64,000 nt of DNA from Rhodothermales bacterium (GTDB lineage Bacteria; Bacteroidota; Rhodothermia; Rhodothermales; VXPQ01): assembly GCA_951812335.1 (NCBI GenBank), contig OX638293.1, positions 2,523,175-2,587,174 on the forward strand, read 5' to 3'. The position numbers were made by a program, and so were the translations under genes. Below the pieces are notes generated by a model that was not told the DNA's origin, searched no databases, and saw only the letters and a program-made list of their open reading frames with translations. Shown piece by piece: positions 1,344-57,654 of this stretch. Each line of letters begins with the position of its first letter. The stretch's first letter is position 1.

Positions 1344-1362
1344 GGCAATGCAGGAAATATTA

Positions 1363-1398: not shown

Positions 1399-1482
1399 GA
1401 GTTCATGCGTAAAAGATATTATAATTGCATCGTTGAAATTAGCGGGAAACGCTACGGATTCGGGGATTCCCGATCTACAGGT

Positions 1483-21678: not shown

Positions 21679-22004
21679 CGGATCGGGCGCGATTTCCTGT
21701 GCATAGCCTCCTGCTGCGGTCCGCACGATATGGGCTCCGCATAGTCGGAGGCTGGACGATCCGGGTTCCGAATAATGGCGTTTCGAGGGCTGGCGATCCG
21801 AACTATACGAATTCTGCATAATTCGGGGTATATCTATGCATATTTTGCATAGATCACTCCGATTACCTCCGCAAAGCCCAGAGACTGAGAAGGGCGCGCT
21901 GGCAAGGAATGACGAAGCAGTGCGGCAGGCGCCTCCGCACACGAAGCGATCCGTTGCGGAAAATCGTGGGGAATCGTGGAAACAGGCCAGCGATCAGGAC
22001 CCAT

Positions 22005-41137: not shown

Positions 41138-41138
41138 G

Positions 41139-42044
41139 TCAAGAATCCGGATGCGCCGCATCCGGATTCCACGGTCTGCCGATAGGCGCCCAGGGCGGCG
41201 CCGCTTCCTGCCGCATGGCCCCCAGTTGCTCGATTTCCAGGTCCACGACATAGCCCACCCGGAGATACCTCGGGGGCGTCATGGCCAGCCCGACTCCTTC
41301 CGGCGTGCCCGTGGAAAGAATGTCCCCCGGAAGCAGCGTCATGAAACGGCTCACGTAGCTTACGAGGAAAGGAACGGGAAAGATCATATCTGCGGTCGAA
41401 CTGTGCTGCATCTCCTCGCCGTTGACCGCAAGCCGCATATCCAGATCGTGTACATCGGCGATCTCGTCCGGGGTGACGAGCGCGGGGCCCAGCGGAGAAA
41501 AGGTGTCGCAACTCTTGCCCTTGACCCACTGCCCGCCCCGCTCGATCTGGTATTCCCGCTCGGAAACGTCGTTCATGATCGAATACCCCGCTACATACTC
41601 CAGCGCTTCGCTTTTCGCTACATACTTCGCCCGGCGCCCGATAATCACGGCCAGTTCGATTTCCCAGTCGGTTTTTCTCGAACCGCGCGGCAGTACGATG
41701 GGGTCGAACGGCCCGCTGAGCGACGAGCTCGCCTTCATGAACAATACCGGTTCCTCCGGCACGGCCATTTTCGATTCTTGCGCATGCTTGTGGTAATTCA
41801 GCCCGATGCAGATAATCTTGCTCGGGCGGGCTACCGGCGGCGCAAGACGCACGTTTGCATCGACCCGCGGCGCATCGGCGGCCTTGCCCGCCTCCAACCA
41901 TTTGCGCAACCGGGTGATACCATCCCCGACGAAAAACGCTTCGTCGTAGTCGTTGGCTACGGCAGAGGCGTCCACACGCGTTCCGTCCGGGAGCAAGAGG
42001 CCCGGCTTTTCGGCTCCGAGCGAACCGAATCGAATAAGTCGCAT
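41139..42044 (-). CDS. fumarylacetoacetate hydrolase family protein (candidate 2,4-diketo-3-deoxy-L-fuconate hydrolase)
   Basis: Starts MRLIRFG at 42044. FAH-fold blocks KIICIGLNYHKHAQE, WEIELAVIIG and GDILSTGTPEGVG. The specific role is inferred from the neighbouring SDR and fucD. Confidence 0.8.
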   Translation of the reverse strand: MRLIRFGSLGAEKPGLLLPDGTRVDASAVANDYDEAFFVGDGITRLRKWLEAGKAADAPRVDANVRLAPPVARPSKIICIGLNYHKHAQESKMAVPEEPVLFMKASSSLSGPFDPIVLPRGSRKTDWEIELAVIIGRRAKYVAKSEALEYVAGYSIMNDVSEREYQIERGGQWVKGKSCDTFSPLGPALVTPDEIADVHDLDMRLAVNGEEMQHSSTADMIFPVPFLVSYVSRFMTLLPGDILSTGTPEGVGLAMTPPRYLRVGYVVDLEIEQLGAMRQEAAPPWAPIGRPWNPDAAHPDS

Positions 42045-42076
42045 CGGAATAACGGATAATGGTCGATGATCGCAGA

Positions 42077-42883
42077 TCAGGGACGGAGCAGAATCGTCCC
42101 CCCGTCTATTGGAAAGATCGCCCCGGTAATGAATCCCGCCGCATCCGAGCACAGGTACAGCACCAACTCCGCCACTTCTTCCGGCGTTCCCATCCTTCCG
42201 ATGGGCTGCGCTGCGGCCAGCCGGTCATACATTTCCTGCTCCCTGCCCGGATAATTTTTTGCAAGGTATCCGTCCACGAACGGGGTGTGAATGCGGGCGG
42301 GAGCAATGGCGTTGCACCGTATGCCCTCCTGCAGATAGTCGCAGGCCACGGAAAGGGTCATGGTCAACACGGCCCCCTTGCTCATCGAATAGGCGAAGCG
42401 ATCCGGGATGCCGATGGTCGACACGGTCGAAGCCATGTTTACGATAGCGCCGCCCCGCCCGCACATTTCCTGCACTGCGGCCTGGAGGCAATGGTACACG
42501 CCTTTTACGTTGACCCGGTAGACCCGGTCGAAATCCTCTTCGGCGGTCGTCGCCACGGTGCCGACATGGGATACGCCGGCATTGTTGAACAGCACATCCA
42601 CAGGGGCGAGGTCCCCGGCGATAGCCCGGAAGGTTTCGTGCACGGCCTCCCCGTCGGACACATCGCAGGCATAGAAGGCCGCAGACGAACCCAGGTCGGC
42701 GGCCAGCGCCCGGCCCGCTTCCTCGTTCACATCCAGCAGAGCGACACGGGCGCCTTCCTGCGCAAACAACTCCGCCGTAGCTTTTCCGATGCCTGAAGCC
42801 GCGCCGGTCACCACCGCCGTACGACCCGAAAGCCGCCCTACGGGGCGATTCGCTTCCCGCATATCCGGAGCAGGCTGATTCAT
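42077..42883 (-). CDS. classical SDR oxidoreductase (candidate 2-keto-3-deoxy-L-fuconate dehydrogenase)
   Basis: VVTGAASGIG and the catalytic YSMSK. The specific role is inferred from context. Confidence 0.8.
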   Translation of the reverse strand: MNQPAPDMREANRPVGRLSGRTAVVTGAASGIGKATAELFAQEGARVALLDVNEEAGRALAADLGSSAAFYACDVSDGEAVHETFRAIAGDLAPVDVLFNNAGVSHVGTVATTAEEDFDRVYRVNVKGVYHCLQAAVQEMCGRGGAIVNMASTVSTIGIPDRFAYSMSKGAVLTMTLSVACDYLQEGIRCNAIAPARIHTPFVDGYLAKNYPGREQEMYDRLAAAQPIGRMGTPEEVAELVLYLCSDAAGFITGAIFPIDGGTILLRP

Positions 42884-42909
42884 ATTCCGTTTAGGATCAA
42901 AGTTATCCT

Positions 42910-44376
42910 TTATTCCTCGATGCGGGCGTCAAGCTGGGTCGGATAGGGATCCAACCCGGCCCGATGCTCCGCCACACGCGCGGCAATCTCTTCCAGCACC
43001 TCCGGGTGCTCTGCGGACACGTCGAACCGCTCGGACGGATCGTGCTCCAGATGATTCAAAATAGGCGTGTCGTGAGACACAGGATCGTCCCCGATGTAGG
43101 CCCGCTGCGTGATGAAGTGCGCTTTCCAGGGCCCCACTCGCGCGGCATAAATGCGCGTACCCCGATAGTACAGGATCATGTCGTGAGCATCCTCGTCACT
43201 TCCCCGGAGGATATTTCCAATATCTATCCCGTCGATCGTGCGGTCGTCCGGAACCGGCACGCCCGCCATACCCAGCACCGTGGGAAACACATCCATTGCC
43301 GTCACGAGCGCCGAATTAACCGCCCCCGCCGGGACCGTGCCGGGCCACCATGCAAGCGCAGGCGACCGCATGCCTCCCTCGTAGGTGGTGCCCTTGCCGT
43401 CCCGCAAAAGCCCCGCCGAACCGCCATGCGTGCGGAAAATAAGCCAGGGACCGTTGTCGCTCGTGAAGAAAACGAGCGTGTTCTCCGCAATGCCCTCTTC
43501 TTCGAGCGTCTGCATGACCTGCCCTACGCTCCAGTCGATCTCTTCGATCACGTCTCCGTAGAGCCCCGCCTTGCTATGACCGGCAAACGCGGCGCTTCGG
43601 AAAAGCGGCGTGTGCGGCATGGTGTGCGCCAGATACAGGAAGAACGGCTCCCCGGCATGGTCGCGGATGAAGGCCACGGCCTCCTGCGCATACCGACGGG
43701 TAATCGTTTCCTGGTCAACCGGGCGCTCGATGACTTCCGTATCGCGCAGCAGCGGCACATTCCAGTATTCGGATTTGGGCTCCCAGAATATTTCCTGCCA
43801 TTCGCCGCCTGCCACGCGATCCATGTCGTTGGAATAGGGAATCCCGTACCAGGAATCGAAGCCGTGGTTTGTCGGCAAAAACGGTTCGAGATGGCCGAGA
43901 TGCCACTTCCCTACGATGCCCGTAGCGTACCCGGCGTCCCTGAGCGCTTCCGCGATCGTAATTTCGCGCGCCGGCAGGCCCAGTTTGGAATCCGGGAAAA
44001 GCACCCGGCGCCGGTCGCTGGCCATCCCGCTCCGGATCGGCAGACGCCCGGTCAACAGCGCGGCCCGGCTGGGCGTACATACCGAAGCGCCCACATAAAA
44101 CTGGGTGAACTTCATCCCTTCCGCCGCCATGCGGTCCAGATGGGGCGTGCGGATCGTGGGGTGCCCGTATACCCCGATATCGCCGTAGCCGAGGTCGTCC
44201 GCAAAAATCAGGACCACATTCGGAGGACGATCTTCCTGCGCCGCCGCCGGACGCGCGGAACATGCCGTCAGGCATAGGAAAAATGCAGTACAGGCCAGGC
44301 AGCGAATGGCAAGCGATCGGAATCGAAACGCGAAAAACGCCGGATGGCGCATTGCATCAGGCATCGAAGCGAACAT
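42910..44376 (-). CDS. arylsulfatase A-type sulfatase
   Basis: FADDLGYGD and CTPSRAALLTGR. The start is uncertain: candidate ATGs at 44376, 44364 or 44352, and the ORF opens at 44523. Confidence 0.88.
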   Translation of the reverse strand: MFASMPDAMRHPAFFAFRFRSLAIRCLACTAFFLCLTACSARPAAAQEDRPPNVVLIFADDLGYGDIGVYGHPTIRTPHLDRMAAEGMKFTQFYVGASVCTPSRAALLTGRLPIRSGMASDRRRVLFPDSKLGLPAREITIAEALRDAGYATGIVGKWHLGHLEPFLPTNHGFDSWYGIPYSNDMDRVAGGEWQEIFWEPKSEYWNVPLLRDTEVIERPVDQETITRRYAQEAVAFIRDHAGEPFFLYLAHTMPHTPLFRSAAFAGHSKAGLYGDVIEEIDWSVGQVMQTLEEEGIAENTLVFFTSDNGPWLIFRTHGGSAGLLRDGKGTTYEGGMRSPALAWWPGTVPAGAVNSALVTAMDVFPTVLGMAGVPVPDDRTIDGIDIGNILRGSDEDAHDMILYYRGTRIYAARVGPWKAHFITQRAYIGDDPVSHDTPILNHLEHDPSERFDVSAEHPEVLEEIAARVAEHRAGLDPYPTQLDARIEE

Positions 44377-44479
44377 GGAATCGGCGGAATATTGCTGCAA
44401 GAAAAATTTGAACGGAAGAATATGCTTCCAAGCCCATAGACTTGTGCATAAAATACATGCGGGACAAACGGATTTCGCC

Positions 44480-45139
44480 TTATCCCTCCTTTTTCGCTTC
44501 CGCAACGCTCCGGCACAGCACACGCGCGTTTTCCGTCAGTTTGCCGAAGTTACCTTCTGCGATGGCCTGCTTGTCCAGCAGGGAAGACCCTACGCCCACC
44601 GCCACGGCTCCGGCGCGAATCCAGTCGCCCGCATTCTCCGGGGATACGCCCCCGGTGGGCATCAACTTCAGGTGGGGCATGGGCGCCAGCACCGCCTTGA
44701 AATACGACATCCCCACCACGCCGGAAGGAAACACCTTGACCACATCGGCCCCGGCCTCGGTCGCTTCGAGAATCTCCGTGGGGGAGAAAGCGCCGGGCAT
44801 CGCGGGCACGCCCCGTTCGTGCGCGGCGTCTATGAGTTCCTTCTTGTACACCGGGCTCACCACATACCGCGCCCCCGCGTCGACCGCCCGGTGCACGCCC
44901 GCCGCATCCAGCACGGAACCCACCCCGATCTCGACGTCGCTCATACTCCCCGCCACCTCCGCGATCGCCTGCAAGGCGCCCGGGGTCGTCATGGTGATTT
45001 CAATGGCGGTAACCCCTCCTTCCCGGATAGCGTCCACGACGCGGAGCACATGCGCAGCGTCGGGCAAACGCACCACAGCCACCACGCCGGTGGCGAGAAT
45101 TCGCTTCAGAACCGCTTCGCGGCGATGTACGGCGGACAT
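44480..45139 (-). CDS. eda: 2-dehydro-3-deoxyphosphogluconate / 4-hydroxy-2-oxoglutarate aldolase
   Basis: Starts MSAVHRREAVL at 45139. Blocks VVAVVRL...AIEITMTTPGA and the Schiff-base region VVKVFPSG. The ORF-track frame runs on through the tandem repeat to 45367. Confidence 0.85.
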   Translation of the reverse strand: MSAVHRREAVLKRILATGVVAVVRLPDAAHVLRVVDAIREGGVTAIEITMTTPGALQAIAEVAGSMSDVEIGVGSVLDAAGVHRAVDAGARYVVSPVYKKELIDAAHERGVPAMPGAFSPTEILEATEAGADVVKVFPSGVVGMSYFKAVLAPMPHLKLMPTGGVSPENAGDWIRAGAVAVGVGSSLLDKQAIAEGNFGKLTENARVLCRSVAEAKKEG

Positions 45140-45175
45140 AGTTGATCTCGATGAATTTTCGGATGCAAACCGGAG

Positions 45176-45307
45176 CATATCGCGCAAGACATTGCGCGTC
45201 CATATCCGGAAGCGACAAGGCATTGCGCGTCCATATCCGGAAGCGACAAGGCATTGCGCGTCCATATCCGGAAGCGGCAAGGCATTGCGCGTCCATATCC
45301 GGAAGCG
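45176..45307. repeat. 31-bp tandem repeat, about 4 copies
   Basis: The unit CATTGCGCGTCCATATCCGGAAGCGACAAGG occupies 45190-45220 and 45221-45251 (identical). A third copy at 45252-45282 has 1 substitution. A partial fourth copy lies at 45283-45307, and a degenerate partial copy at 45176-45189. Confidence 0.95.
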
Positions 45308-45406
45308 CCCGGCGCGAAAGCGCAAGATACGGCCTTGCGCCGGGAACCGGAAGAGATAAAGCGGCAATTCGACGGCGCTATCGTCATGGGCAGCCTGCCG
45401 CCGCCG

Positions 45407-48400
45407 CTACGCCTGCAACCCCGGCGACAGAGCAACCTCGACCGTATCGATCGCTCCATCGCGGCGGAATATGCTTTCGCTGGAGGCAGGGTCGAGCGTC
45501 GATCCGTCCAGAATGCGGGGGGCGCCGTCCCGGTCTGTAATGTGGATACTTGCCTCCTCAGCCACGCGATAGAAGAAGGGCGTCTGGCAACAGGTGAAGG
45601 CCAGCATACCCGGCAGGAGTTCCAGCGTCCGAAGGCGCCCGCCTGTATCGTACCAGCGGAATTCGGCAGGGTGCGTAAGAAATTCGGAGCGGCGCAGCAG
45701 CGTGGGCCGGAAACGGATCTTGCCGTCCCGGATCATGACCCCCAGTTCCCCCCAGCGGCACAGGATATCTTCCTTCACCTGCCCTGTCATGCCCGGCTGT
45801 TGCGCACCCGCATGCGCCGGCGTATGCGAATACGGATCGGAGGGAAAGGCCCCGAATTGCTCCGGCGTTCTGTGCATGCCCAATCCCCCGCGAATAGCGT
45901 AGTACTGTTCGACCAGGGCTTGTTGCACCGCCATGTCCTCCCCGGCGTCCTCCGCAGCCCGAAAACATTCCAGCACCGCAAGCAACAACTTGGACACCAT
46001 GTGCCAGTACACGCTTCCCAGACCCTCGTATCCGAAGAACGTGCCGGAGCGCCCGGTGTACGAGCGGTGATCGAACACGTCCTCGAACAGGGCAAGCACC
46101 GCGTCCCCATCCTGTTCGACCGCCTCGGCGTACCCCTCCCGCCGTAAGGTTTCGAGCGCGGCTTTCACGGAGTCCGCGTTACGGAAGGCGCCGTTGAAAT
46201 GCCACCCCCCTTCCCCGTCCTGCACGATCAACCGGCGATCGCCTGCGTCGGCCAGCGTCCGAAGGAGCGCGATGTCCTCCACCCGACCGGCTTCGAACCG
46301 GTTTTTTTCGATAAACCGGGGCAACGTGCGATCGGGATACAGCAGATAGGTGTTCCGGCGCGGACAATACAGCGGCCCGTCCCTCAGCGTCGATAACACC
46401 TCGAGCGCCTCCCTGCCCGAAAGCGTTCCGGCGCTCAGCACAGCGACCTGCCCTTCCAGCATCGCGTACATAGACCGAAGCGCCACCGTTTTCGGAGACG
46501 TAACCGACATCAGGCTGTAGGCATGAAACAACCCGTCGGGGCGCCGGGCGGTCCGGATACTGTGTTCCGCAAACGCCGAAGCGCGCCCAAGCAATGTCAG
46601 CACCGCATCGCGGCGCACGGCCCGCACCTCGCCGGAAAATCCATCCTCGTATATCTTCCCGCGATACGCGCTCCCCGCTTCGCCCAGCGCGTCCATCACC
46701 GTCCTCCGGTCTTCGTCGGTCCAGACCCCGGCCGCAAGATGTTCGTGCCGGCCGAGCGCTTCGGAAATCGTATCCATGAAACCGGCTGCTTCTTCGGAAA
46801 GCTCGAGGGTTTCGTGCGGCAGACCGGCGAAGAGATCGGCGACAACATCCACGAAACGCCGTACGTAACACAGCGTAACCATGGACACGCCGTACCCCAC
46901 GAGCGCATTATTCGCGTCGTTCCACTCCGGTCGCTGCGTGTTCATCCAGACGCCGCCGCCGGGAATGAAGCCGGTTAGCCGGGCCAGCAGCGTCACCAGC
47001 AATTTTTCGCTCAGATTGACCAGATACACATCGCCGTCGGGACCCGGAACGAGCTTGCCATCCCCCCCGATCTCCGCAACGCGCCGGGTGGAGCGCGCCG
47101 CCGACTCGTCGTCGAAATCGATCGTTTCGTGGGGGTTTTCCAGCATCTCGCGATACGGTCGAATGCGGTACGGTACATCCGCGTAGGCGAATATCTTCCG
47201 CGCAAGAAATTCCTCCAGTCTGCCGGGGTGATGCGCGCGGGAGCATTCGAGCAGTTTAAGCAGATAGGCGACCTGGTGATCGCCCCAATACCCGATGTAT
47301 GACCAGGGATCGTTGGGATCGAGCACCTCCCAGTCGATGCCGTCTTGCGTCAGACGGTAGGGATTGTATCCGTCGGGGGTCGATGCATTGACGAACTTGC
47401 AGACCATGCTTTCGACATATTCCGGATACGAAAAGGCCAGCGCCTCCCAGTTCTGGAAAATATCCCTCCAGTTGCCCTCGTAGGCGATTTTTCGCGAGCC
47501 GTCCTCGTTGTGCGTATCGATGGCGAAGCGGTTCCACGGACGACTCGGATCGCCATGGCGGCGTCCAAACGTAAGCGGCAGGTACTCGTGGCACAGGCGC
47601 TCCATCTGCGGATCGTGCAGGGATTCTGCTTCCGCAAGCAAACGGTGGACCGGCATCCGGTCGGGGAGTCCGGCGATCCATGCCTCATGCCGGGCGGCCA
47701 CGGAACTGTTGCGGCGATGCAGAAAGGACGTCAGATCGAAACGGGATATCAGGCCGTTTCCGACGAACACCCCGCCCCGCATCACATTGAACATCACATG
47801 CGAGAAGTGCCTCGCCGCCATCATCGGCTCGGCGGTACGCTGCAACCCGTCCCCGCCGGCCACGAGGCGAGCCAGCCGCTCGCCCCCTTCCCGGACATCC
47901 TGTTCTATCAGCGAAACAATGTCTGCGCTTCCCCGGGAGGGGTCGTTCAGCATGGCCCGCAACGCCACCGCATCGTCCGGCCCCTGTTTGACATCGGCGA
48001 CGATATACCAGACATGCTCGGTATCGGGCGTCGCGTCGAATGAAGCTTGCACAAAAAAGCCCCCTTTTATACCCCGCACATCCTCTTCTTGTTCCACGAA
48101 CGCTCCCTGCCGGAAGCGGTCCAGCTGGGCCGAAGACAAGAGGTGCGCCTCGGCCTCCAGCCCCACCGACCATGCCGCCGTAGCCATGAGCGCCTCGCTC
48201 GGTTCGGGCTTATCCACCGGGATGGAACTCAATACGAACAGGGCCGGGCCCGCCGGGCCATACCATTCGCTCTTCTTGTAGGCGTCCACCAGGTTGCTGC
48301 GGTCGGCTTGCAGAACCTGGGGAACTCCGTAGGGCAGAATATTCCGGATCCCGTCAAGAACCCGCACCCTTGCCTGCCCGGAGCCGGTATTGCGGAGCGC

Positions 48401-48928
48401 CGACCGCTTGACGAAACCGAATCGCCGGCTGGTGGCCCAGGTATACGCGAAGACAAGCTGGAGGTCGCGATTGATTTCCTCGTAGCGAATCTTGTGTCCG
48501 TACAGGCTCTTGTACAGATTACGCTCGACGGCATACGCTCCCCGATACCGATCCGAAAACGGCTCCCACAGCGCGTGTCCGTCCTGCCGCTCCACCAGCA
48601 GGATCGTTTTCCCGCCCACCTGATCCTGCGCATCGTGGATCTTGTCGTCCGTGCAATAGGGAAAAAGCGCCTGCTCGGCGGTACCTCTGCCTGCCGTCAG
48701 GCCCCCATTGCTCGACGCAAACAGCCAGTGATCGCCATCGCTGACCATCGACATGAAGAAAGGAGGCAATCGGTCGCACCGTCCGATCTTGTAGAACGTC
48801 TCGCCGTCGAGTTCGACGAACGCACCGGTGACCGGGCCATCGATATCCCGCATGGGGACGGCTCCCGCAAAAACGGGGGACCCCGGCGGCGGAGCCGGGG
48901 GCTTACGACTCCCACGGGATGCACTCAC
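45407..48928 (-). CDS. 1173-aa conserved-looking protein of unknown function
   Basis: Single uninterrupted ORF. The GTG start lies 2 nt after the stop of the upstream glycoside hydrolase (an alternative ATG is at 48853). There is no signal peptide and no motif I can assign. The only weak hint is GNWRDIFQNWEAL / WGDHQVAYLLKLLE, which is reminiscent of (alpha/alpha)6-barrel carbohydrate enzymes. Confidence 0.7.
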   Translation of the reverse strand: MSASRGSRKPPAPPPGSPVFAGAVPMRDIDGPVTGAFVELDGETFYKIGRCDRLPPFFMSMVSDGDHWLFASSNGGLTAGRGTAEQALFPYCTDDKIHDAQDQVGGKTILLVERQDGHALWEPFSDRYRGAYAVERNLYKSLYGHKIRYEEINRDLQLVFAYTWATSRRFGFVKRSALRNTGSGQARVRVLDGIRNILPYGVPQVLQADRSNLVDAYKKSEWYGPAGPALFVLSSIPVDKPEPSEALMATAAWSVGLEAEAHLLSSAQLDRFRQGAFVEQEEDVRGIKGGFFVQASFDATPDTEHVWYIVADVKQGPDDAVALRAMLNDPSRGSADIVSLIEQDVREGGERLARLVAGGDGLQRTAEPMMAARHFSHVMFNVMRGGVFVGNGLISRFDLTSFLHRRNSSVAARHEAWIAGLPDRMPVHRLLAEAESLHDPQMERLCHEYLPLTFGRRHGDPSRPWNRFAIDTHNEDGSRKIAYEGNWRDIFQNWEALAFSYPEYVESMVCKFVNASTPDGYNPYRLTQDGIDWEVLDPNDPWSYIGYWGDHQVAYLLKLLECSRAHHPGRLEEFLARKIFAYADVPYRIRPYREMLENPHETIDFDDESAARSTRRVAEIGGDGKLVPGPDGDVYLVNLSEKLLVTLLARLTGFIPGGGVWMNTQRPEWNDANNALVGYGVSMVTLCYVRRFVDVVADLFAGLPHETLELSEEAAGFMDTISEALGRHEHLAAGVWTDEDRRTVMDALGEAGSAYRGKIYEDGFSGEVRAVRRDAVLTLLGRASAFAEHSIRTARRPDGLFHAYSLMSVTSPKTVALRSMYAMLEGQVAVLSAGTLSGREALEVLSTLRDGPLYCPRRNTYLLYPDRTLPRFIEKNRFEAGRVEDIALLRTLADAGDRRLIVQDGEGGWHFNGAFRNADSVKAALETLRREGYAEAVEQDGDAVLALFEDVFDHRSYTGRSGTFFGYEGLGSVYWHMVSKLLLAVLECFRAAEDAGEDMAVQQALVEQYYAIRGGLGMHRTPEQFGAFPSDPYSHTPAHAGAQQPGMTGQVKEDILCRWGELGVMIRDGKIRFRPTLLRRSEFLTHPAEFRWYDTGGRLRTLELLPGMLAFTCCQTPFFYRVAEEASIHITDRDGAPRILDGSTLDPASSESIFRRDGAIDTVEVALSPGLQA

Positions 48929-48930
48929 GA

Positions 48931-50271
48931 TTACGACTCGACGTAGAAAGGAATATTGGCGTGGGCAGCGTGCCCCTCGCCGTCATACACATAGATAAAG
49001 AGGCGGTACGCGCCTTCCTCGGCGGGCGCCGTCAGCGTGACCTCCGGGGTATCCATACGGTCCAGCACGTTCTCTATGTGTTCGGGAACCTCCTCGTCAT
49101 CGCCTCCCGTGCTCTGCACCGTGCTCTCGCGGCGCATCTCCCATTCGTACCGCAGCGCATCGCCGTCCGGATCGACGGACGAGACCGAGGCCGCGTACGA
49201 CTGTCCGGGACGAAGATAAATGCCTTCGTGGGCCTCTTTGCCGTCAAGCAGGGCCTGCTCCAGACGGGGACTCCGGTTCTCGGGCCACGCCCCGTTCCAT
49301 ACGTAATGCATTACGTCGACGGTTTCGGTCTCTTCCCCCGTAGGCAAAAACATGCCGTACCAGGTCGGCGTGCGCTCCTGCTTTTGCCCCCACAGAAAAA
49401 CATACGACCCCACACACTGGTCCCGCATGGATTCGATGACGGTCCGGTAGCGCCTCAGGTAATCGTCGGCCTTGACGGAACTGTTGTTTTCGAGGGGCGC
49501 GCCCCAGGGCGTGCTCGGAACCTCCCAATGGCCGGTAGCGCCCCACTCGGTAACCATGAACGGCCCGTCCCATCCGATTTCTTCGATGTACCGGGGCAGA
49601 TTTTCGATATCCGCGTACATCTGGATACTGAGCAGGTCCAGGTCGGGAGCCCGCATCTTTATGTCGTCGGCCAGCTCCTGCCAGATCCCCGCCAGCATGG
49701 TGGTGGTCAAGTGGTTGGGGTCGATCTCGTGAATCATTTCCGAGATTTCGTTGACGGCGTCCCAGACGCGGGGGTTGGTTGCGCCGAGGTTAAGTTCGTT
49801 GCCGATGCCCCAGACGATCAACGCCGGATGATCCTTGTACTGCATGACTTCGGCCCGAATCCGTTCGAGTTGCTCCGCCACAGCCTCTTCGTCGTCGTAG
49901 TCGAATCCGAAAAACCCCCGTCCTTCGCCCTCGCGCTCCCGAGCGATCTCCAGGCCCATCGTAACCACCAGACCCGCCTCATGGGCACGGCGCAACACCT
50001 CGTCGCCCGTATCGCGCCCGTTGTCCGTACGCCATGTTCTGAACGAATTGGCCCCGTTCTGCGCCAACCGCTCTATATCGCCGAACTCGAGACCTGCCCC
50101 GTGGATGTAAAAAGGCTCCCCGTCCTTGAGCAGTTCGTAGCGGCCGTCCACCTGCCGCAATTCCATCTTGACCGGCCCTTCGACGGAAGGGGTTTCCGCA
50201 CTCGACCGGCACCCCGAAAGAACAAGCGTGGAGAGTAAGAGGCCTGCGATGGGACCATACGATGATTTCAT
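48931..50271 (-). CDS. clan GH-A (beta/alpha)8 glycoside hydrolase lipoprotein with C-terminal beta-sandwich
   Basis: Lipobox LVLSGC. Acid/base block VWGIGNELN and nucleophile block FMVTEWG. Confidence 0.75.
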   Translation of the reverse strand: MKSSYGPIAGLLLSTLVLSGCRSSAETPSVEGPVKMELRQVDGRYELLKDGEPFYIHGAGLEFGDIERLAQNGANSFRTWRTDNGRDTGDEVLRRAHEAGLVVTMGLEIAREREGEGRGFFGFDYDDEEAVAEQLERIRAEVMQYKDHPALIVWGIGNELNLGATNPRVWDAVNEISEMIHEIDPNHLTTTMLAGIWQELADDIKMRAPDLDLLSIQMYADIENLPRYIEEIGWDGPFMVTEWGATGHWEVPSTPWGAPLENNSSVKADDYLRRYRTVIESMRDQCVGSYVFLWGQKQERTPTWYGMFLPTGEETETVDVMHYVWNGAWPENRSPRLEQALLDGKEAHEGIYLRPGQSYAASVSSVDPDGDALRYEWEMRRESTVQSTGGDDEEVPEHIENVLDRMDTPEVTLTAPAEEGAYRLFIYVYDGEGHAAHANIPFYVES

Positions 50272-50293
50272 GATGTGTTATACTCGAGAACGT

Positions 50294-50329
50294 GAAGCGC
50301 CGGGCGAAGTGGTTTTGATCAGAGTATCC
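50294..50329 (+). repeat. dispersed repeat, 36-nt version (GAAGCGCCGGGCGAAGTGGTTTTGATCAGAGTATCC)
   Basis: Lies between the MFS stop (50397) and the GH start (50271). It is antisense to both genes. Confidence 0.8.
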
Positions 50330-50396
50330 GATAGTTGCCGGGACGGCATGTATGTAGGGGGTACAGCGTCGATCCGCGTGGAGGCGCCGGAGACGA

Positions 50397-51953
50397 TCAT
50401 TTCACGAGTATTTTTTCCAGTTCCTCCAGCGATTTCCCTTTCGTTTCCGGCAGCACCGCCATGACGAAAACGAATCCGACGGCAGCGAACAGACCGTAAA
50501 TCAGGAACGTCGGGGCGCTGCCGATCTGGGATAATTCCCACGGAAACACGAGTTGCACCGTAAAACTCACGGCGGAGTTGATCAGGCCCACGAAGGAAAT
50601 AGCCAGACCGCGAATGCGGTTGGGGAACAGTTCGGAAAAGAGCACCCACATCACCGGTCCGATCGACACCGCGAAAAAGGCGACGAAGGCGAGGATGCCC
50701 GCCAGGATCAGCCCGGGGTTAATGTCGATAGCAGCCGTGACCAGCGTACTTTCGTGCTGTCGGGCGGCCTCCTCGCCAAGCGCATCGGCCACGGCAGCCT
50801 TGAAGGCCACGTCGGAATCGTACGTCCGATCGGCCATGGATTCGAGCGCAACGGTTGGAACCTCTTCCGGCAGCGAAGCAATAGCATCCGGGGTAAGGGT
50901 ATAACTCGCCTGGAAGAATCCGAACGCCAGCACCAGCATGGACACGGTGACGCCGCCCAGCCCGACGGCGAGCAGCGGCTTGCGCCCGAGGCGGTCGATG
51001 AGCAATATGGCCAGTACGGTAAAAACAAGATTGGTCAAGCCGACCAGAATGGCCTGCATGAACGACGCGTTCGTGCCGATGCCGGATTGCTCGAAGATCA
51101 TCGGCGCATAGAAGAACACCGCATTGATGCCGGTGATCTGCTGGATGACAGCCACGACGACGCCAATAAGCAGCACCAGGCGAAGGGCCGGAGCGAACAA
51201 CTCGCGCAGGGGCGCTTTTACCTTGCCGGCGTCACTGGCGATGCTCGCTTTTACGGCTTGAATCTCCTCGTCCGCGCGTCCCTCGCCGCTGGCCCGAATC
51301 ATGATGGGCCGCGCCAGCGCCTCCCGTCCCCGCATGATCAGCCAGCGAGGACTTTCCGGCACGAAGAAGAGGCACGAGAAGTAGAGCACGGCGGGAAGCG
51401 TTTCCAGACCCAGCATCCAGCGCCAGTTCCAGGGGCCGAAGCGAAGCGCCTCCGCCCATGCCATGTCCGATTGCCCCAACAGCAGTACGAGGTAATTCGT
51501 AAAGAACGCCACCGAGATGCCGATCACGATATTCAATTGATTGAACGACACCAGCTTCCCCCGCACGGCCGGAGGCGAAATCTCGGCGATATACATCGGC
51601 GCAATGATGAGCGAGGCCCCTACCCCGAACCCTCCGATCATGCGGGCCGCCACCAGAAACCAGAAAGAAGGCGCCAGCGCGGAAGCGATCGCCGACACGG
51701 CATACAGTACGGCGGCGAAAAACAGCACCCGCCGACGCCCGAGGGCATCGCTCAGCGGGCCGGCCACCATCATGGCCAGGGTGGCCGTAAGGGTCAACGA
51801 ACTGACCGCCCAGCCGAGCTCCAGTTTGGTCAGGGTAAACTGCGTCTCGATGAATCCGACAACGCCGGATATGACCGAGGCGTCGAAGCCCATCAGAAAG
51901 CCCCCGAGGGCCACGATCAGGGCGGTACGGGTTATGTAGCTTCGATCAGGCAC
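50397..51953 (-). CDS. MFS sugar porter family transporter (sugar:H+ symporter)
   Basis: 518 aa with the signatures DALGRRRVL, PESPRWL and PETKGKSLEE. Confidence 0.9.
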   Translation of the reverse strand: MPDRSYITRTALIVALGGFLMGFDASVISGVVGFIETQFTLTKLELGWAVSSLTLTATLAMMVAGPLSDALGRRRVLFFAAVLYAVSAIASALAPSFWFLVAARMIGGFGVGASLIIAPMYIAEISPPAVRGKLVSFNQLNIVIGISVAFFTNYLVLLLGQSDMAWAEALRFGPWNWRWMLGLETLPAVLYFSCLFFVPESPRWLIMRGREALARPIMIRASGEGRADEEIQAVKASIASDAGKVKAPLRELFAPALRLVLLIGVVVAVIQQITGINAVFFYAPMIFEQSGIGTNASFMQAILVGLTNLVFTVLAILLIDRLGRKPLLAVGLGGVTVSMLVLAFGFFQASYTLTPDAIASLPEEVPTVALESMADRTYDSDVAFKAAVADALGEEAARQHESTLVTAAIDINPGLILAGILAFVAFFAVSIGPVMWVLFSELFPNRIRGLAISFVGLINSAVSFTVQLVFPWELSQIGSAPTFLIYGLFAAVGFVFVMAVLPETKGKSLEELEKILVK

Positions 51954-52044
51954 GGCATATACATATTCAACGTTTGGGAATCCCTAACATATCTCCCTTT
52001 GCGGCGGTATACAAATTTCTCGTCGGATGCACCGAAAAAAGAGG
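51632..52044. repeat. 413-bp direct repeat, copy A (5' 322 nt of the MFS gene plus 91 nt upstream)
   Basis: Base-by-base comparison with 54555-54967 gives 410/413 identical, at an offset of 2923 bp. Confidence 0.95.
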
Positions 52045-52788
52045 AATTACCGGGTTAACTTGACGGATCCTTGATCCAGCCCGTATGTTCCGTTTATGGA
52101 ATCTACCTAGACAAATCATGCAGCGTCGCGGCGGTCGTATCTTCGACGACCTCGGCCTTGATCTTGCCGGTCGCCCGATCTTTTGCGCCAACGACTGCCG
52201 TCTTGCCTACGACGCCCCTGCCTGCGTGCAGCTTTTTTGACTCGTGCTTGTTCGCTTCTTTGCCGCCGACGAACGTCTCGTCCACCTCTACCGGGCCGCC
52301 GAAGAGATTGTCTTCTCCGGCGTCGAACGCCTTGCGAATCCGTTGGAGCAGATGCCACGCGCTGCTCTGGTGAATATCTATGTCCCGTGCAATCTTCGTG
52401 CTCGATACGCCTTTCAGGCTCGTCATGTGCAGGTAGATGGCGTATACCCACTTGCGCAGCGGAAGCCGCGAGGCTTCCATGACCGTGCCAACCCTGACGC
52501 TGAAATACTTCCGGCAATCGGTGCACCAGTAGGGCATAGGCTTTGCAGCCTTCACCTCGCGGGTGCGGGTGCTCTTGCAGCGCGGGCAATGGCGCCCGTC
52601 GGGCCAGATGCGGGATTCGAACCACCGCCGGGCCGCTTCCTCGTCGGGAAACATCTCGGCCAACTGCATTACGGATATGCCGTTTCGATGTGTTCTGTGA
52701 GCCATGTTTTTGATCTCTCTATATTCGTTATAACTATCTGTAAATATAGGAACTTACATCAAAAATATCAAGTTAACCCGGTAATTCC
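52043..52788 (-). mobile_element. internally deleted IS1595-family element (746 bp) with perfect 21-bp terminal inverted repeats
   Basis: GGAATTACCGGGTTAACTTGA at 52043-52063 and its exact reverse complement at 52768-52788. The element encloses a truncated transposase. The flanking 8-mers differ, so there is no target-site duplication. Confidence 0.85.
52103..52705 (-). pseudogene. IS1595-family transposase, N-terminal 200 aa only (Zn-ribbon plus start of ISXO2-like domain)
   Basis: CPRC...C..C zinc ribbon, LPLRKWVYAIYL, and VEVDETFVGGKEANKH. The ORF ends at ...TLHDLSR, with only a short out-of-frame FHKRNIR remnant of the C-terminus before the IR. The DDE core is missing. Confidence 0.8.
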
Positions 52789-52835
52789 TTTTTCAGATAA
52801 TTTCACTTCCTTTTCATTTTTTTTGCGCCAGGGTC

Positions 52836-52864
52836 TTGACATTGCCGGATCGCCTCCTTACATT
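52836..52864 (+). promoter_or_regulatory. sigma70-type promoter-like element facing the cargo ORFs
   Basis: TTGACA (52836-41), a 17-nt spacer, then TACATT (52859-64). A direct ACATTGCC repeat spans both elements. Confidence 0.4.
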
Positions 52865-52928
52865 GCCATCCGGTGTGAGGATTTCCATAAATCCGGTTTT
52901 TGTACAACTTGCTTTTGGGGGGATTGCG

Positions 52929-53168
52929 ATGACTCATTTCTTACATACCTGCTGGGATTTTGCTAATACGCATTACTTCCTTGATCGGCCTCTCTCCTTC
53001 TATATTAAGGTCATTGTTCCTTTTATTCTTTTTATGTTGTTTTATGATACTGTTCATGCACAACAAAGGGGGCATCCTTGTAATCGAGCTTTTTCGAGTT
53101 ATAATGAAGCAAATTGTCGAAACTGCTTTGGGTCTTCAAGATTGGCAAGCTACCCCGAATATTTATAG
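52929..53168 (+). CDS. alternative small ORF (79 aa) with hydrophobic segment; may be a frame artefact of T-rich DNA
   Basis: ATG preceded by GGGGG. It encodes ...IKVIVPFILFMLFYDTVHA-QQRGHPCNRAF..., and overlaps the next ORF by 65 nt in another frame. Confidence 0.2.
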   Translation: MTHFLHTCWDFANTHYFLDRPLSFYIKVIVPFILFMLFYDTVHAQQRGHPCNRAFSSYNEANCRNCFGSSRLASYPEYL

Positions 53169-53478
53169 AAATTGGGACCCTTGGCTTGGAGGTTGGGGCT
53201 ATGGTTATGGTACGCCTGATCCTTGTTATCAGGATGCCGGGATGACTCGTCTTATTGGGGCTGGTGGTATAGTTGGAGGTTATGGAGCTAATTCGCCTTT
53301 AACTTCATTTTTTGGTGCTGTAACGTTTTATCAGGGAATTCGACAACATAATAATTGCTATGGTACTTCTGAGGATAATTGGAATTTCTTCGGATGGGGA
53401 CGTGGTTCTGATAACGACCCATCATCTTATTGTTCAGCTAGAGAAAGTCACTGTGATGATGGTGATCGTCGTGAATAA
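53104..53478 (+). CDS. Gly/Trp/Tyr-rich four-cysteine small protein (124 aa), unknown function
   Basis: MKQIVETALGLQDWQATPNIYRNWDPWLGGWGYGYGTPDPCYQDAGMTRLIGAGGIVGGYGANSPL...NNCYG...SYCSARESHCDDGDRRE. The ORF opens at a TTG at 52960, which would add a hydrophobic N-terminal helix. G+C is below that of the core genes. Confidence 0.4.
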   Translation: MKQIVETALGLQDWQATPNIYRNWDPWLGGWGYGYGTPDPCYQDAGMTRLIGAGGIVGGYGANSPLTSFFGAVTFYQGIRQHNNCYGTSEDNWNFFGWGRGSDNDPSSYCSARESHCDDGDRRE

Positions 53479-53549
53479 ACGATATGCTCTCGTGTGATTT
53501 ACAAGTTTTTTGTATCTCATCTTGAATTGAACGCTAGAGTATATCATTG

Positions 53550-54090
53550 GGAATTACTTGGCAAAGCCGCGTGGTATCCGAGCCAGCGCGTACGCGGGGC
53601 ATCTGTGTTTGTCGGTACGATTGAGATTGACGAATACCTACATGGGCGGTAAGGAAGCAAATAAGCACCGAAACAAGGAATCTTTCGCTTGACGCGGTAC
53701 AGCGAGCAAGGTGGCCGTCATGGGTGCAAAGCAGCAGGCTGGCGAGATCGTTTCCTGCCCTTATAGATTGGGGGCCAGAAGAGACGCTGGCCGGGTTCGC
53801 GCTCTAAATCCGGCCTAGCCCGGCGAAACAGTTTACACAGACGATCACAGAGCATACCGGAACCTGCGACATACATTCCGGGTCAGAATTTTTTTAAGCC
53901 ATACCCCTCAAGCGTGGATACAAGGACACGTTGCATAAAATCGGGCGGAAGCACCCCGACGGCTATGTCAACGAGATTGCCGGACGGCACAATATCCGGG
54001 GCTTCGATACACTGGACCAGATGGCTGCTATCGTGCGGGGCATGGACCAAAAACGTCCTCGGTACACCGTATCGCAGGATCCGTATACAG
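53550..54090 (+). pseudogene. decayed IS1595-family transposase (5'-truncated, frameshifted, internally deleted)
   Basis: Piecewise frames read ...AAWYPSQRVRGA..GTIEIDEY / MGGKEANKHRNKE / RGTASKVAVMGAKQQAGEI / PEETLAGFAL* / LKRGYKDTLHKIGRKHPDGYVNEIAGRHNIRGFDTLDQMAAIVRGM. These pieces are colinear with IS1595 transposases but are broken by stops. Confidence 0.7.
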
Positions 54091-54127
54091 GTAAAATGAC
54101 AAAGCCGAATAACTATGGTGCTCTATC

Positions 54128-54439
54128 ATGTCCTTGACTAAAATAAACTATATTGCATGGAGTCTTATCCTGATTCCTTGTTTGCAATTTGCATATAATA
54201 TAATTCATTATGTTAATCTTGGAGCTCCAGTAAGTGCTATCATTGTACCTGCTGTTAGCGGTTTTGTCACAAATTTTTTGTTATTTTTCTTTCTTGGACG
54301 TTTCATTGTACAAACGGCTATCAATAAGCGCATACTCCGTAGACTTGATGAATTGAATCGTGCTTCTGCGCCTCCGGGCTATCCGGAAACTCTTGAGGAA
54401 CTGGACTCTCAACCGGGCGCACGCTCGGGCGATTCTTGA
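54128..54439 (+). CDS. small two-TM membrane protein (103 aa), unknown function
   Basis: Helices INYIAWSLILIPCLQFAYNIIHYV and VSAIIVPAVSGFVTNFLLFFFLGRFIV, followed by a charged tail. This is the most AT-rich gene in the window. Confidence 0.45.
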   Translation: MSLTKINYIAWSLILIPCLQFAYNIIHYVNLGAPVSAIIVPAVSGFVTNFLLFFFLGRFIVQTAINKRILRRLDELNRASAPPGYPETLEELDSQPGARSGDS

Positions 54440-54554
54440 GTCATTCCCTGCATTTGCCTTCGCGCTGGCGCGAGCGAGAGCACGTTCCCGGGCCGGCTGC
54501 CCCAGTGCGATCTTGGTGGCCCGTGCACCTGGCTATCGTTGCACACCCTATCCT

Positions 54555-54876
54555 CTCCGATCATGCGGGCCGCCACCAGAAACCAGAAAGAAGGCGCCAG
54601 CGCGGAAGCAACCGCCGACACGGCATACAGTACGGCGGCGAAAAACAGCACCCGCCGACGCCCGAGGGCATCGCTCAGCGGGCCGGCCACCATCATGGCC
54701 AGTGTGGCCGTAAGGGTCAACGAACTGACCGCCCAGCCGAGCTCCAGTTTGGTCAGGGTAAACTGCGTCTCGATGAATCCGACAACGCCGGATATGACCG
54801 AGGCGTCGAAGCCCATCAGAAAGCCCCCGAGGGCCACGATCAGGGCGGTACGGGTTATGTAGCTTCGATCAGGCAC
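54555..54876 (-). pseudogene. duplicated 5' fragment of the MFS sugar porter (first 107 codons)
   Basis: Identical to the MFS N-terminus except for I->V (ATC->GTT) and one synonymous change. The frame then runs into unrelated sequence (…ARMIGEDRVCNDSQ...). Confidence 0.9.
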
Positions 54877-54967
54877 GGCATATACATATTCAACGTTTGG
54901 GAATCCCTAACATATCTCCCTTTGCGGCGGTATACAAATTTCTCGTCGGATGCACCGAAAAAAGAGG
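54555..54967. repeat. 413-bp direct repeat, copy B (adjacent to valS)
   Basis: See copy A. Beyond 54967 the sequence continues into the valS 3' end. Below 54555 it continues into foreign sequence. Confidence 0.95.
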
Positions 54968-54981: not shown

Positions 54982-57654
54982 TTATCCCAGCTGTTCGAGA
55001 TTCCTGCGCAGCCGGGCAATATCCGCAGCGGCGTCCTGTTCCTTTCTGCGTTCCCGTTCCACTACCTCGGGCCGTGCTCTCGTAACGAACTGTTCGTTCT
55101 GCAATTTCCGGCGCACGCTGCCGAGAAAACGTTCCTTTTGCGTGACTTCCTTCTGCAGGCGCTCGCGTTCCACATCAAGATCGATGATCCCCGCCAGCGG
55201 AACGAACGCCTCGCACGGACCGGCCACATGGGAAGCGGCGCCGGCCGGACGCGCCAGATCGCTGCCCACGGTCAGGGTATGCACGCGGGCCAGCTTGCGG
55301 AAATAGTCCCCGTGCGCCGCCAACGACGCGCCAATCGCTTCCGCATCGGGAGAAACATGCACCAGCGCCTCGATCTCCGCACCGGGCGCCACCCTGTATT
55401 CGCTTCGGACGGTGCGAATGCCGGACACCACATCCTGTATCAGGTTGAACGTGGCGGCAGCGTCGCGGTCCATCAGGGAAAGGTCCTGCTCAGGCCAGGG
55501 CGCCGTCATACAGCAGGCTCCCTCCTCCCGGGGCTGCAACTGCGCCCACAACTCCTCGGTGATGAACGGCATGAACGGGTGCAGCAGCCGGAGCATCGCA
55601 TCGTAGAGTTCGATGGCGAGCGCCAGCGTTTCCTCGTCCGGCTCCTCGCCCGGCGCCGGCTTGATCAGTTCGAGATACCAGTCGCAGTAATCCTTCCAAA
55701 AAAGATCGTATATCCGGCCCAATGCCTCGTTGAGGCGATAACGCGCCAACGCCTCGTTCACCTCCCCGATCCCGGCGTGCAGCCGGTGCATCATCCACCG
55801 TTCCACCAGTTCCAGTTCCTCGAAAGAGCGCGTCCGGCGGTACGTTTTCCCTGACTCGATGAACCGCCCGAACACCTTGAACGCATTCCATATCTTGTTC
55901 GCAAAATTGCGGCCCATCTCGAATTTCGTCGGGTCCAGCCGGATGTCCTGCCCCTGGGCGCACAAGATGACCAACGAGAAGCGGACGGCGTCGGCGCCGT
56001 ACCGGTCGATCATGTCCAGCGGATCGATGCCGTTTCCGAGGCTTTTCGACATCCAGCGCCCCTGCTTGTCCTTGATCATCCCCGTAATGAAGATATCGCT
56101 GTAGGGCGGCTCGCCCATGAAGCGGCATCCCGCCATGATCATGCGGGCGATCCAGAAGAAAAGAATGTCGTACCCGGATACGAGCACCTGCGTGGGGTAG
56201 AAACAGGCAAGGTCTTCCGTCTGCTCCGGCCATCCCAGGGTGGCGAACGGCCACAACCACGACGAAAACCAAGTGTCGAGCACATCCTCGTCCTGCACCA
56301 TGCCGGGAGCGGGCCGATCCACCGAAACGACATACCCGCGCCGTTCGTCGATCCTGCCGTCCTCGCCGGTATGGTACCAGACAGGAATGCGGTGTCCCCA
56401 CCAGAGTTGCCGCGAGATGGTCCAGTCCCGGATGTTTTCCATCCACCGGAAGTACTCGTTCTCCCAGCGCTTCGGGTGAAACGCGACCTTGCCCGCGCGA
56501 ACCGCCTCGATGGCCGGTTCGGCCAGCGGCGTCATCTTCACGAACCACTGCCGGGAAACAAGGGGTTCGACAACCGCCCTGGACCGGCTCGACACAGGGA
56601 TCGTGCCTTTCATGGGCTCCGTCTTGACAAGGAGCCCTTCTTTTTCGAGATCCGCCACGATGCGGTCGCGGGCGGCAAAGCGATCCATCCCCTCGTACGG
56701 TCCCCCCTGCTCGTTGATCGCGCCGTCGGGCCGGATCACATTAAGGACCTCGAGGCCGTGCCGCCGCCCGATCTCGAAATCGTTCCGGTCGTGGCCGGGC
56801 GTCACCTTCAGCGCCCCGCCGCCGAAATCCATCTTGACATACTCGTCCGCAATCACCGGAATTTCCCGACCCGCAAGCGGAAGCACCACCTTCTTCCCGA
56901 TCAGGTCGGTATAACGCGGATCGTCGGGATGTACGGCGACCGCCGTATCCCCCAGCATGGTTTCCGGGCGGGTCGTGGCGATCGTAATCGCGCCGGAACC
57001 GTCCGCCAGCGGATAATCGATATACCACAGGTGTCCTTCCCGCTCCACATTGTCCACTTCCTCGTCGGACAGCGCCGTCCGGTTTTCCGGATCCCAGTTG
57101 ACCAGGTAATCCCCCCGATAGACCAGCCCTTCTTCATACAGACGCACGAATACTTCCTGCACCGCTCGCGTGAAGCCCTCGTCCATCGTAAACCGCTCTC
57201 TGCTCCAGTCGCACGAGTCTCCGAGGCGGCGTTTCTGTTCCAGAATCCTGCCGCCGTATTCGCGCTTCCACGCCCAAACGCGTTCGACGAAACGCTCGCG
57301 GCCCAGATCATGGCGGGTCTTGCCCGCTTGGGCCAGCTGCTGCTCCACGACGTTCTGCGTGGCGATACCGGCATGATCCATTCCCGGCATCCAGAGCGCC
57401 TCGTAGCCCTGCATGCGCCGGAGGCGCGTCACGGCGTCCTGAATGGCGTCCTGCAGCGCATGCCCCATATGCAGCGCGCCGGTCACATTGGGAGGCGGCA
57501 TGACAATGACATGCGGAGGCTTGCCGGAATGCGGCCGGACTCGAAAGAGGTCGTTCTTTTCCCACCAGGCATACCATTTGGCTTCGATCTCGGCCGGGCG
57601 ATACGCCGTACTGCGGTCGACTTGCTCCTTGCGGGACGTTTCCTTCGTAGACAT
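54982..57654 (-). CDS. valS: valine--tRNA ligase
   Basis: 890 aa. Class I HIGH-type motif (GALHMGHA), KMSKS-type motif (WMSKSLGN), and a C-terminal coiled coil. Confidence 0.97.
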   Translation of the reverse strand: MSTKETSRKEQVDRSTAYRPAEIEAKWYAWWEKNDLFRVRPHSGKPPHVIVMPPPNVTGALHMGHALQDAIQDAVTRLRRMQGYEALWMPGMDHAGIATQNVVEQQLAQAGKTRHDLGRERFVERVWAWKREYGGRILEQKRRLGDSCDWSRERFTMDEGFTRAVQEVFVRLYEEGLVYRGDYLVNWDPENRTALSDEEVDNVEREGHLWYIDYPLADGSGAITIATTRPETMLGDTAVAVHPDDPRYTDLIGKKVVLPLAGREIPVIADEYVKMDFGGGALKVTPGHDRNDFEIGRRHGLEVLNVIRPDGAINEQGGPYEGMDRFAARDRIVADLEKEGLLVKTEPMKGTIPVSSRSRAVVEPLVSRQWFVKMTPLAEPAIEAVRAGKVAFHPKRWENEYFRWMENIRDWTISRQLWWGHRIPVWYHTGEDGRIDERRGYVVSVDRPAPGMVQDEDVLDTWFSSWLWPFATLGWPEQTEDLACFYPTQVLVSGYDILFFWIARMIMAGCRFMGEPPYSDIFITGMIKDKQGRWMSKSLGNGIDPLDMIDRYGADAVRFSLVILCAQGQDIRLDPTKFEMGRNFANKIWNAFKVFGRFIESGKTYRRTRSFEELELVERWMMHRLHAGIGEVNEALARYRLNEALGRIYDLFWKDYCDWYLELIKPAPGEEPDEETLALAIELYDAMLRLLHPFMPFITEELWAQLQPREEGACCMTAPWPEQDLSLMDRDAAATFNLIQDVVSGIRTVRSEYRVAPGAEIEALVHVSPDAEAIGASLAAHGDYFRKLARVHTLTVGSDLARPAGAASHVAGPCEAFVPLAGIIDLDVERERLQKEVTQKERFLGSVRRKLQNEQFVTRARPEVVERERRKEQDAAADIARLRRNLEQLG

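Follow-up and report, generated by a model that had tools for sequence, protein, structure and literature searches.

The locus described here lies in a 64,000-nucleotide (nt) stretch of the genome of a Rhodothermales bacterium (assembly GCA_951812335.1, contig OX638293.1, forward-strand positions 2,523,175 to 2,587,174), hereafter called the window, to whose numbering all coordinates refer unless another locus is named. Between valS (54982..57654, minus strand; Pfam tRNA-synt_1, Anticodon_1 and Val_tRNA-synt_C) and an intact sugar-transporter gene of the major facilitator superfamily (MFS; 50397..51953, minus strand, GTG start, 518 amino acids (aa)), a block of 2510 bp (52045-54554) is enclosed by two direct copies of a 413-bp segment, termed copy A (51632-52044) and copy B (54555-54967). 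The transporter gene matches Pfam Sugar_tr (2.3e-106) and MFS_1 (3.4e-38), its orthologues in four related loci (L001-L004) show 88-95% aa identity, and it was assigned to Rhodothermales in a scan with one genome for each species. Each copy comprises the 91 nt upstream of the MFS gene together with 322 coding nt (107 codons). The repeat search gave a spacing of 2923 nt from copy A to copy B, and in the pairwise alignment the copies are identical at 410/413 positions, with a match that ends sharply on both sides. Two of the three mismatches (51687 and 51689) fall in one codon, which reads ATC (Ile) in copy A and GTT (Val) in copy B, and the third (51780) is a synonymous ACC/ACA difference. Self-BLAST of the region revealed no third copy of the segment in the 64-kb window; a sharp-edged pair of this length with no other copy is therefore far beyond chance.

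The two copies have different surroundings. Copy A runs on into the intact MFS gene, whose first 107 codons lie within it, and adjoins on its other side the terminal inverted repeat of an element of the IS1595 family of insertion sequences (IS). Copy B directly adjoins valS, on the side of the valS stop codon, and forms the native continuation of the region downstream of valS until it is cut at codon 107. The extra 413-bp copy begins in the T-run after valS and stops at this codon. Across the cut, an open reading frame (ORF) of 155 aa (54409..54876, minus strand) joins 107 MFS residues to 48 unrelated residues read from the tail of the block; this fusion ORF is a probable pseudogene, and an identical protein is already on record (P0122). 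In an index of gene positions, the exact MFS, transposase, fusion and ValS proteins of the window gave no match. The original prediction, made from the letters alone, had described a 413-bp direct duplication of 91 nt plus 107 codons, a copy B cut off into non-MFS DNA, a copy A abutting an IS end on its upstream side, and the order homology, foreign DNA, homology plus rest of the gene. Repeat search and alignment, the make-up of the fusion ORF and the genuine terminal inverted repeat beside copy A bear out this description, and the order is real.

Comparison with strains lacking the insert, which had been proposed together with the original prediction, was made with four relatives. In L002, L003 and L004 (88-90% aa identity), valS, the MFS gene and a GH2-like hydrolase (GH) gene are consecutive, the 413-bp segment is single-copy and the block is absent. 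L084 (~90% nt identity), in which the synteny of valS is likewise kept, is collinear with window 64000-41943 apart from the missing 52044-54556. Taken together, these loci show valS / promoter + MFS / GH to be the ancestral order, as reconstructed from the relatives, and the window accordingly equals this order plus 2923 bp, that is, the block and one extra 413-bp copy. The adjacency of valS and MFS in the relatives also means that copy B has kept the native arrangement beside valS, as had been claimed. Both flanking repeats correspond to one contiguous segment of the uninterrupted locus, as is expected of a Campbell product. The foreign nature of the block, also part of the original prediction, is confirmed by its absence from these relatives and its deviant composition (49% GC with segments at 41%, compared to 60% for the whole window).

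In order to gain insights into the make-up of the block, its parts were annotated individually. Its promoter-side end is formed by an internally deleted IS1595-family element (52043..52788, minus strand; hereafter mini-IS) with terminal inverted repeats GGAATTACCGGGTTAACTTGA at 52043-52063 and 52768-52788, which agree exactly over 21 nt and at 96% over 26 nt. Just these two copies of GGAATTACCGGGTTAACTTGA are present in the window, with 0 expected by chance, and the first 2 nt of the element overlap native CC. The truncated transposase ORF (52103-52705, 200 aa) matches NF033547 (9.4e-27), PF12760 (2e-07) and PF12762 (2.3e-11, truncated at profile position 69/153). With a zinc ribbon, an ISXO2-like DDE domain and terminal inverted repeats, 52043-52788 has the features that define membership of the IS1595 family. 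The same IS end is present in L081, L082, L086, L088 and L089, and since L081 and L082 show further IS sequence past window 52119, the window element is internally deleted at 52119/52120. Elements of the IS1595 family are described as making 8-bp target duplications. No such duplication accompanies the mini-IS, as its flanks AAAAAAGA and TTTTTCAG are not a direct repeat, and the two flanks therefore have different histories. In every flank seen of this IS end (52035-52044, 52789-52793, L081 11061-11069 and L082 1683-1700), a run of 5-7 A lies 0-4 nt from the GGAATTACC terminus, which suggests either a preference for A/T runs, for example terminator tails, or a slightly longer terminal repeat.

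A second IS1595-family transposase is preserved as a degenerate C-terminal fragment with frameshifts and stops (53566..54137, plus strand); it was recognised in a three-frame reading (NF033547, 3.1e-06) and shares 50% identity over 40 aa with the first transposase in a tblastn comparison. The valS-proximal end of the block is a GC-rich tail of 115 nt (54440..54554), which ends at an illegitimate joint with MFS codon 107. No inverted-repeat partner was found for this right end (54554), and Smith-Waterman scores for similarity to IS ends, both after the second transposase fragment and at the tail, lie within the range of shuffled controls; judged by these comparisons, the block does not terminate in an IS end on this side. 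IS1595 transposase remnants are the sole recognisable domains of the block, which contains no integrase or recombinase gene and, among the domains recognised, no replication, vector, plasmid or phage functions. Neither the block nor the IS end matched plasmid, phage or viral collections. With no integrase in the insert, the block does not correspond to a site-specific integrative element of the prophage, integrative and conjugative element or integron type, and an engineered suicide vector is contradicted by the missing plasmid-database match and by junctions found in several environmental metagenome assemblies. Nothing in its sequence suggests present self-mobility.

The second transposase fragment lies between two small genes on the plus strand, orf183 (52929..53478) and orf103 (54128..54439). 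The former encodes a Gly/Cys/aromatic-rich, secreted-looking protein, whose N-terminus carries a hydrophobic stretch ending VHA-QQ that is signal-peptide-like by eye; the latter encodes a small hydrophobic, membrane-like protein. In the window, orf183 is frameshifted by an extra A near 53120, and it is intact in L086 (P0121); the window frameshift may reflect either a pseudogene or a homopolymer error. The orf103 protein is identical in L086 and L087, the only two matches of an exact-sequence look-up that was run without a homology search. Diverged homologues of both genes are encoded in L088 (orf183: 33% over 89 aa; orf103: 36.6% identity, E 1.8e-20), where they are directly adjacent and lack the IS fragment between them. 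This adjacency indicates that orf183 and orf103 form one cassette, which is split in the window by the second IS fragment. The L088 genes (13500-14210, strand opposite valS) represent a diverged two-gene cassette at the same locus of another strain; the IS end known from the window truncates the Gly/Cys-rich gene at its 5' end, and two further genes, one HTH_Crp_2-like (82 aa) and one of 91 aa, separate the cassette from valS.

For orf183, orf103 and the L088 homologues, no family was found in Pfam or NCBIfam. Searches with orf183/P0121 among 5.8 billion proteins and 1.84 billion representatives retrieved nothing but copies of this gene, a full HMMER search with P0121 against the 1.84 billion representatives yielded just two fragments of it, and diverged homologues of either gene were seen in L088 alone. 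Between strains, orf183 is hypervariable, with 57/549 sites differing from L086 compared to 7/1075 in the remaining shared block, and the ratio dN/dS is ~1.1 overall and ~2.4 in codons 61-140. Mosaic alleles are represented by P0242 and P0243, and separate frameshifts have arisen in the window and in L089 (183-812), while the L086 copy (223-774) is intact. The cassette is low in GC, rare and sharply variable between strains, and essentially unique in billions of proteins.

The two novel junctions of the structure were traced through other assemblies. The promoter-side junction (52044/52045) is an exact IS end at the upstream limit of the repeat. The conspecific metagenome contig L081, which is identical to the window over long stretches with a baseline of ~99%, shares this IS/promoter junction and the next 77 nt of the window IS; past these follow ~20 nt of IS sequence not in the window and then unrelated DNA, with a 748-aa surface-protein gene, and no valS, beyond the IS. 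The occurrence of the junction in this valS-less context demonstrates that the placement of an IS immediately before the MFS promoter exists as an arrangement on its own. The codon-107 junction (54554/54555) and the tail are identical in L086 and L087, two other metagenome assemblies. There, copy B shows small indels, has lost 247 bp by a deletion between two CACGGCATA copies, and shares the B-specific Val codon of the window. The L086 contig breaks off at the IS and within the promoter portion of the repeat, and such ends are typical of short-read breaks at true repeats; the whole structure is spanned by the window contig alone. In L088, valS is accompanied by ~37 nt of the repeat segment, other genes, the homologous cassette and a same-orientation IS end. 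Compared to the window, the valS-side junction is thus variable, whereas the IS end that closes both loci is the same and equally oriented; the far IS junction of L088 lies off the contig, so that the parallel with the window is incomplete.

The original prediction had attributed the three differences between the copies to a diverged incoming allele, which is not supported by the relatives. At 51687 and 51689, copy A has the base of L081, L001, L084 and more distant relatives, all of which keep the Ile codon; at 51780, it agrees with L081 and L001, and the distant relatives vary, none of them having the copy B base. By this comparison, copy A retains the ancestral base at all three variant sites, and the three changes in copy B are derived. 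As copy B of L086 and L087 has the Val change as well, two of the three are older than the split from these strains. The differences read as decay of a dead copy and not as a donor allele. All three lie within the codon-distal 170 nt of copy B, a position compatible with a crossover upstream of them and equally with pseudogene decay. At 51961, both window copies have a derived A, and L081, L001, L084 and copy B of L086/L087 have C; this single site suggests gene conversion between copies A and B. Substitutions and deletions accumulate in copy B, which would occasionally exchange sequence with copy A.

A comparison of window 40909-52119 with L081 1-11146 showed most 500-bp bins to be 98-100% identical, with divergent patches at 84-95%. 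Among these, bins at 44409-45430 reach 84-86%, and a dense, mostly synonymous patch (51402-51566) lies inside the MFS gene. The divergent patches are likely to be imports by homologous recombination. A relative dating, in which the IS/promoter junction would be older than the split of copies A and B because the window and L081 differ by 3.5%, was dropped, since the divergence is mosaic.

Since the window combines a native run from valS to codon 107, a native run from the T-run to the end of the MFS gene, and a block with one IS end and one arbitrary joint, its sequence demands one homology-guided step at the IS/promoter junction and one illegitimate joint. We hold, with about even confidence, that the locus represents a natural insertion-duplication in the valS-MFS intergenic region that arose by recombination, either as a Campbell integration or as a one-ended event. 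The donor DNA would have carried the IS and cassette already directly upstream of an MFS promoter and would have recombined with a chromosome in native order. Homology to the right of the IS end would give one exchange, and an illegitimate joint between the block tail and codon 107 the other. In the simplest version, a fragment consisting of tail, cassette, IS and the 413 bp would circularise and then integrate by a single homologous crossover within the 413 bp; a linear one-ended event would yield the identical product. Of the single-crossover integration of a circular molecule put forward in the original prediction, the topology stands, as it matches a Campbell product, while the block has no features identifying a circular donor.

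Campbell integration in the style of suicide plasmids produces the same order of homology, foreign DNA and homology plus rest of the gene, needs no site-specific recombinase, and gives a product that could revert by recombination between the repeats. In an E. coli conjugation experiment, 56/60 recombinants were single crossovers of re-circularised truncated molecules, and the 14 sequenced among these had duplications of the homologous segment of 109-950 bp, a range into which the 413 bp fall; true one-ended events numbered only 4, all with deletions (PMC3240628). Unlike those products, the present structure contains no replicon, marker or vector backbone, no circular form of it is known, one end of its homology is set by an IS end, and, as a natural structure, it has been inherited and is decaying in several strains. 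Homology-facilitated illegitimate recombination also combines one homologous with one illegitimate joint and brings in 1-3 kb of foreign DNA. This process usually leads to insertion together with deletion of recipient DNA (PMC3240628), whereas here recipient DNA is duplicated and not deleted. With the IS1595 family and its composite or passenger derivatives, the block shares the zinc-ribbon and ISXO2-like DDE transposase, the terminal inverted repeats of 21-26 nt, a miniature, internally deleted form and associated small passenger-like genes. It differs in lacking the 8-bp target duplication, in having one IS end only, and in a flanking 413-bp repeat that is host sequence. The locus therefore contains a bona fide IS1595-family element, yet it is not a usual IS1595 insertion.

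Several points weigh against a recombinational insertion-duplication. Chromosomal DNA from a sibling strain normally integrates by double crossover, which leaves no duplication. Neither free nor circular molecules of the block with the 413 bp were found; in every collection searched, the block is confined to this locus, and no contig combines the postulated donor arrangement with a complete cassette; L081 has ~100 nt of IS followed by unrelated DNA. The mosaic divergence of the strains makes the ages of the junctions unreadable from mismatch counts. Finally, Campbell integration, a linear one-ended event and repair synthesis in situ give an identical sequence, so that the choice among them rests on plausibility.

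Repair in situ, which we consider unlikely, would start from a simple insertion of IS and cassette at the T-run, followed by a later break at the valS-proximal end of the insert; the valS-side end would anneal to the short duplicated target beyond the element, copy 413 nt of promoter and MFS sequence and be joined to the eroded end of the element, with need of neither a donor strain nor a circle. It would account for one exact IS-end boundary, one arbitrary boundary and the lack of a terminal repeat at the valS-proximal end of the block, and the derived bases that A and B share relative to L081 at 51861 and 51961 look as if B had been copied from A within the lineage. L088 resembles a second instance, with a shorter copied tract (~37 nt), a related cassette and the same IS, but as its far IS junction is off the contig this parallel is incomplete; moreover, the presumed intermediate, a simple insertion with an 8-bp target duplication, was seen in no genome, and on its inner side the mini-IS lacks a target duplication. 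An origin by transposition is still less probable in our view. It would involve either a composite IS1595-bounded element whose two ends attacked the target at sites 413 bp from each other and so produced a giant target duplication, or two independent insertions of one element into different chromosomes (at the T-run and at codon 107), followed by recombination inside the element. Formally, repeat, element, repeat is the layout of a target-site duplication, and the two transposase remnants in opposite orientation around orf183 recall a composite transposon. However, these remnants are merely ~50% identical, and a transposon should carry inverted repeats at both ends, while here the left end has one and the right end at 54554 has neither an inverted repeat nor any likeness to IS ends. 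In addition, 377 bp, most of orf103 included, separate the last transposase remnant from the end of the block, and a 413-bp duplication contrasts with the 8 bp described for the family and with the element itself, which shows none. A literature search surfaced no precedent for target duplications of hundreds of bp (work on the IS1202 family came up and was not used).

That the structure is an assembly artefact had been raised as a caveat with the original prediction; two strain haplotypes might have been joined into a chimera, or a repeat resolved wrongly in the source contig. No second contig spans the entire structure, and the homopolymer frameshift in orf183 could be a long-read error. Against this, each novel junction recurs in assemblies made independently from other samples, one in L081 and the other in L086 and L087, the latter two with the same B-specific Val codon in copy B, and L086 breaks at the repeat and the IS, as short reads do at real repeats. 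The recurrence of both novel junctions makes an artefact very unlikely, and the caveat is largely removed. The recombinational insertion-duplication that we favour is an ordinary recombination product and requires no new mechanism.

Other rearrangements were observed in the same region of related genomes. In L083 (12674-15768) and L085 (12674-15767; valS 93% aa), the MFS gene is lost after ~64 codons, and the GH gene and most of a 1173-aa gene are gone. The truncated MFS ORFs after valS in these two loci were considered as the same junction as that of the window and rejected, because the breakpoint differs (equivalent to window 54685); the joint leads into the 3' end of the 1173-aa gene, downstream of which a TonB-dependent receptor gene lies on the opposite strand, just past the deletion joint. 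This deletion is an independent rearrangement of the locus. Of the species in the genome collection, L001 (1-1700) is the nearest relative (MFS 95% aa), and its upstream neighbour, a third and unrelated one, is an opposite-strand gene for an Ig-like repeat protein. The sequence GGAATTA upstream of the L001 MFS promoter was examined as a possible 7-nt IS remnant of an ancient insertion. This was rejected, since L084, with the native arrangement, has GGATTCC at that position; GGAATTA is thus native sequence, and the L001 rearrangement a separate one. The L001 break lies ~10 nt from the IS insertion point, so that the upstream edge of the MFS-GH cluster has been repeatedly rearranged. A short dispersed intergenic repeat (~65-250 nt, 78-85% identity) also occurs in the window (1361-1450, 21861-21933, 50269-50333) and in related genomes (L081 14247-14494; L003 1-141 and 2996-3253), with one copy in the enlarged valS-MFS spacer of L003. 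With regard to the host, the valS cluster of P0002 includes one member named by NCBI as 'Bacteroidetes bacterium SB0662_bin_6 / SB0668_bin_1'. We take these names to denote sponge-associated metagenome bins, which would make the lineage a sponge symbiont.

The intact transporter has retained the 91 nt upstream of it, which now stand beside the IS. The motif GAAATTTGTATACC is present in both copies (52011-52024 and 54934-54947); its core (AAA, TTG, TNCC) does not vary among the aligned relatives, the closer of which share the entire motif. It resembles what we take to be the TAnnTTTG -7 element of Bacteroidota-type promoters. As the conserved motif is found in both copies, the intact transporter probably keeps its promoter, and the copy beside valS could yield just a two-to-three-helix fragment. 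After valS, our own reading of the sequence points to a GGGG-CTTA-CCCC hairpin as a putative valS terminator, which was not called in a scan for sigma-70 and terminator consensus sequences. The direct repeats could recombine and thereby remove the block; in L086 and L087, the deletions in copy B leave shorter homology for such a removal.

Overall, the locus provides a clean natural insertion-duplication, the two novel junctions of which are traceable through several wild strains, along with a redundant gene fragment that is visibly decaying through point changes, small indels and the loss of 247 bp in a microhomology deletion. For annotation, caution is advised, as the 155-aa 'MFS' ORF is a relic and the transporter is intact. 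The layout of small, variable two-gene cassettes at one locus in different strains (window and L086 compared to L088), together with remnants of former content, recalls displaced toxin/immunity-type cassettes whose remnants persist at a fixed site, such as the effector-immunity arrays of the Vibrio cholerae type VI secretion system (PMC5361080). The present cassette differs in having no secretion-system context, and orf183 and orf103 are likened to these pairs by layout alone. A broader and rather improbable reading would be that the IS and cassette spread between strains without transposing, using the IS-adjacent chromosomal sequence as a built-in homology arm at a recurrent landing pad, and that orf183 and orf103 are toxin/immunity-like. 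If this were true, the promoter and MFS start would be left duplicated over a varying length at each arrival (~37 nt in L088, 413 nt in the window), and the two genes would represent a novel toxin/immunity-like pair in rapid diversification; the locus would then serve as a recurrent, homology-anchored landing pad and would not be the scar of a single accident.

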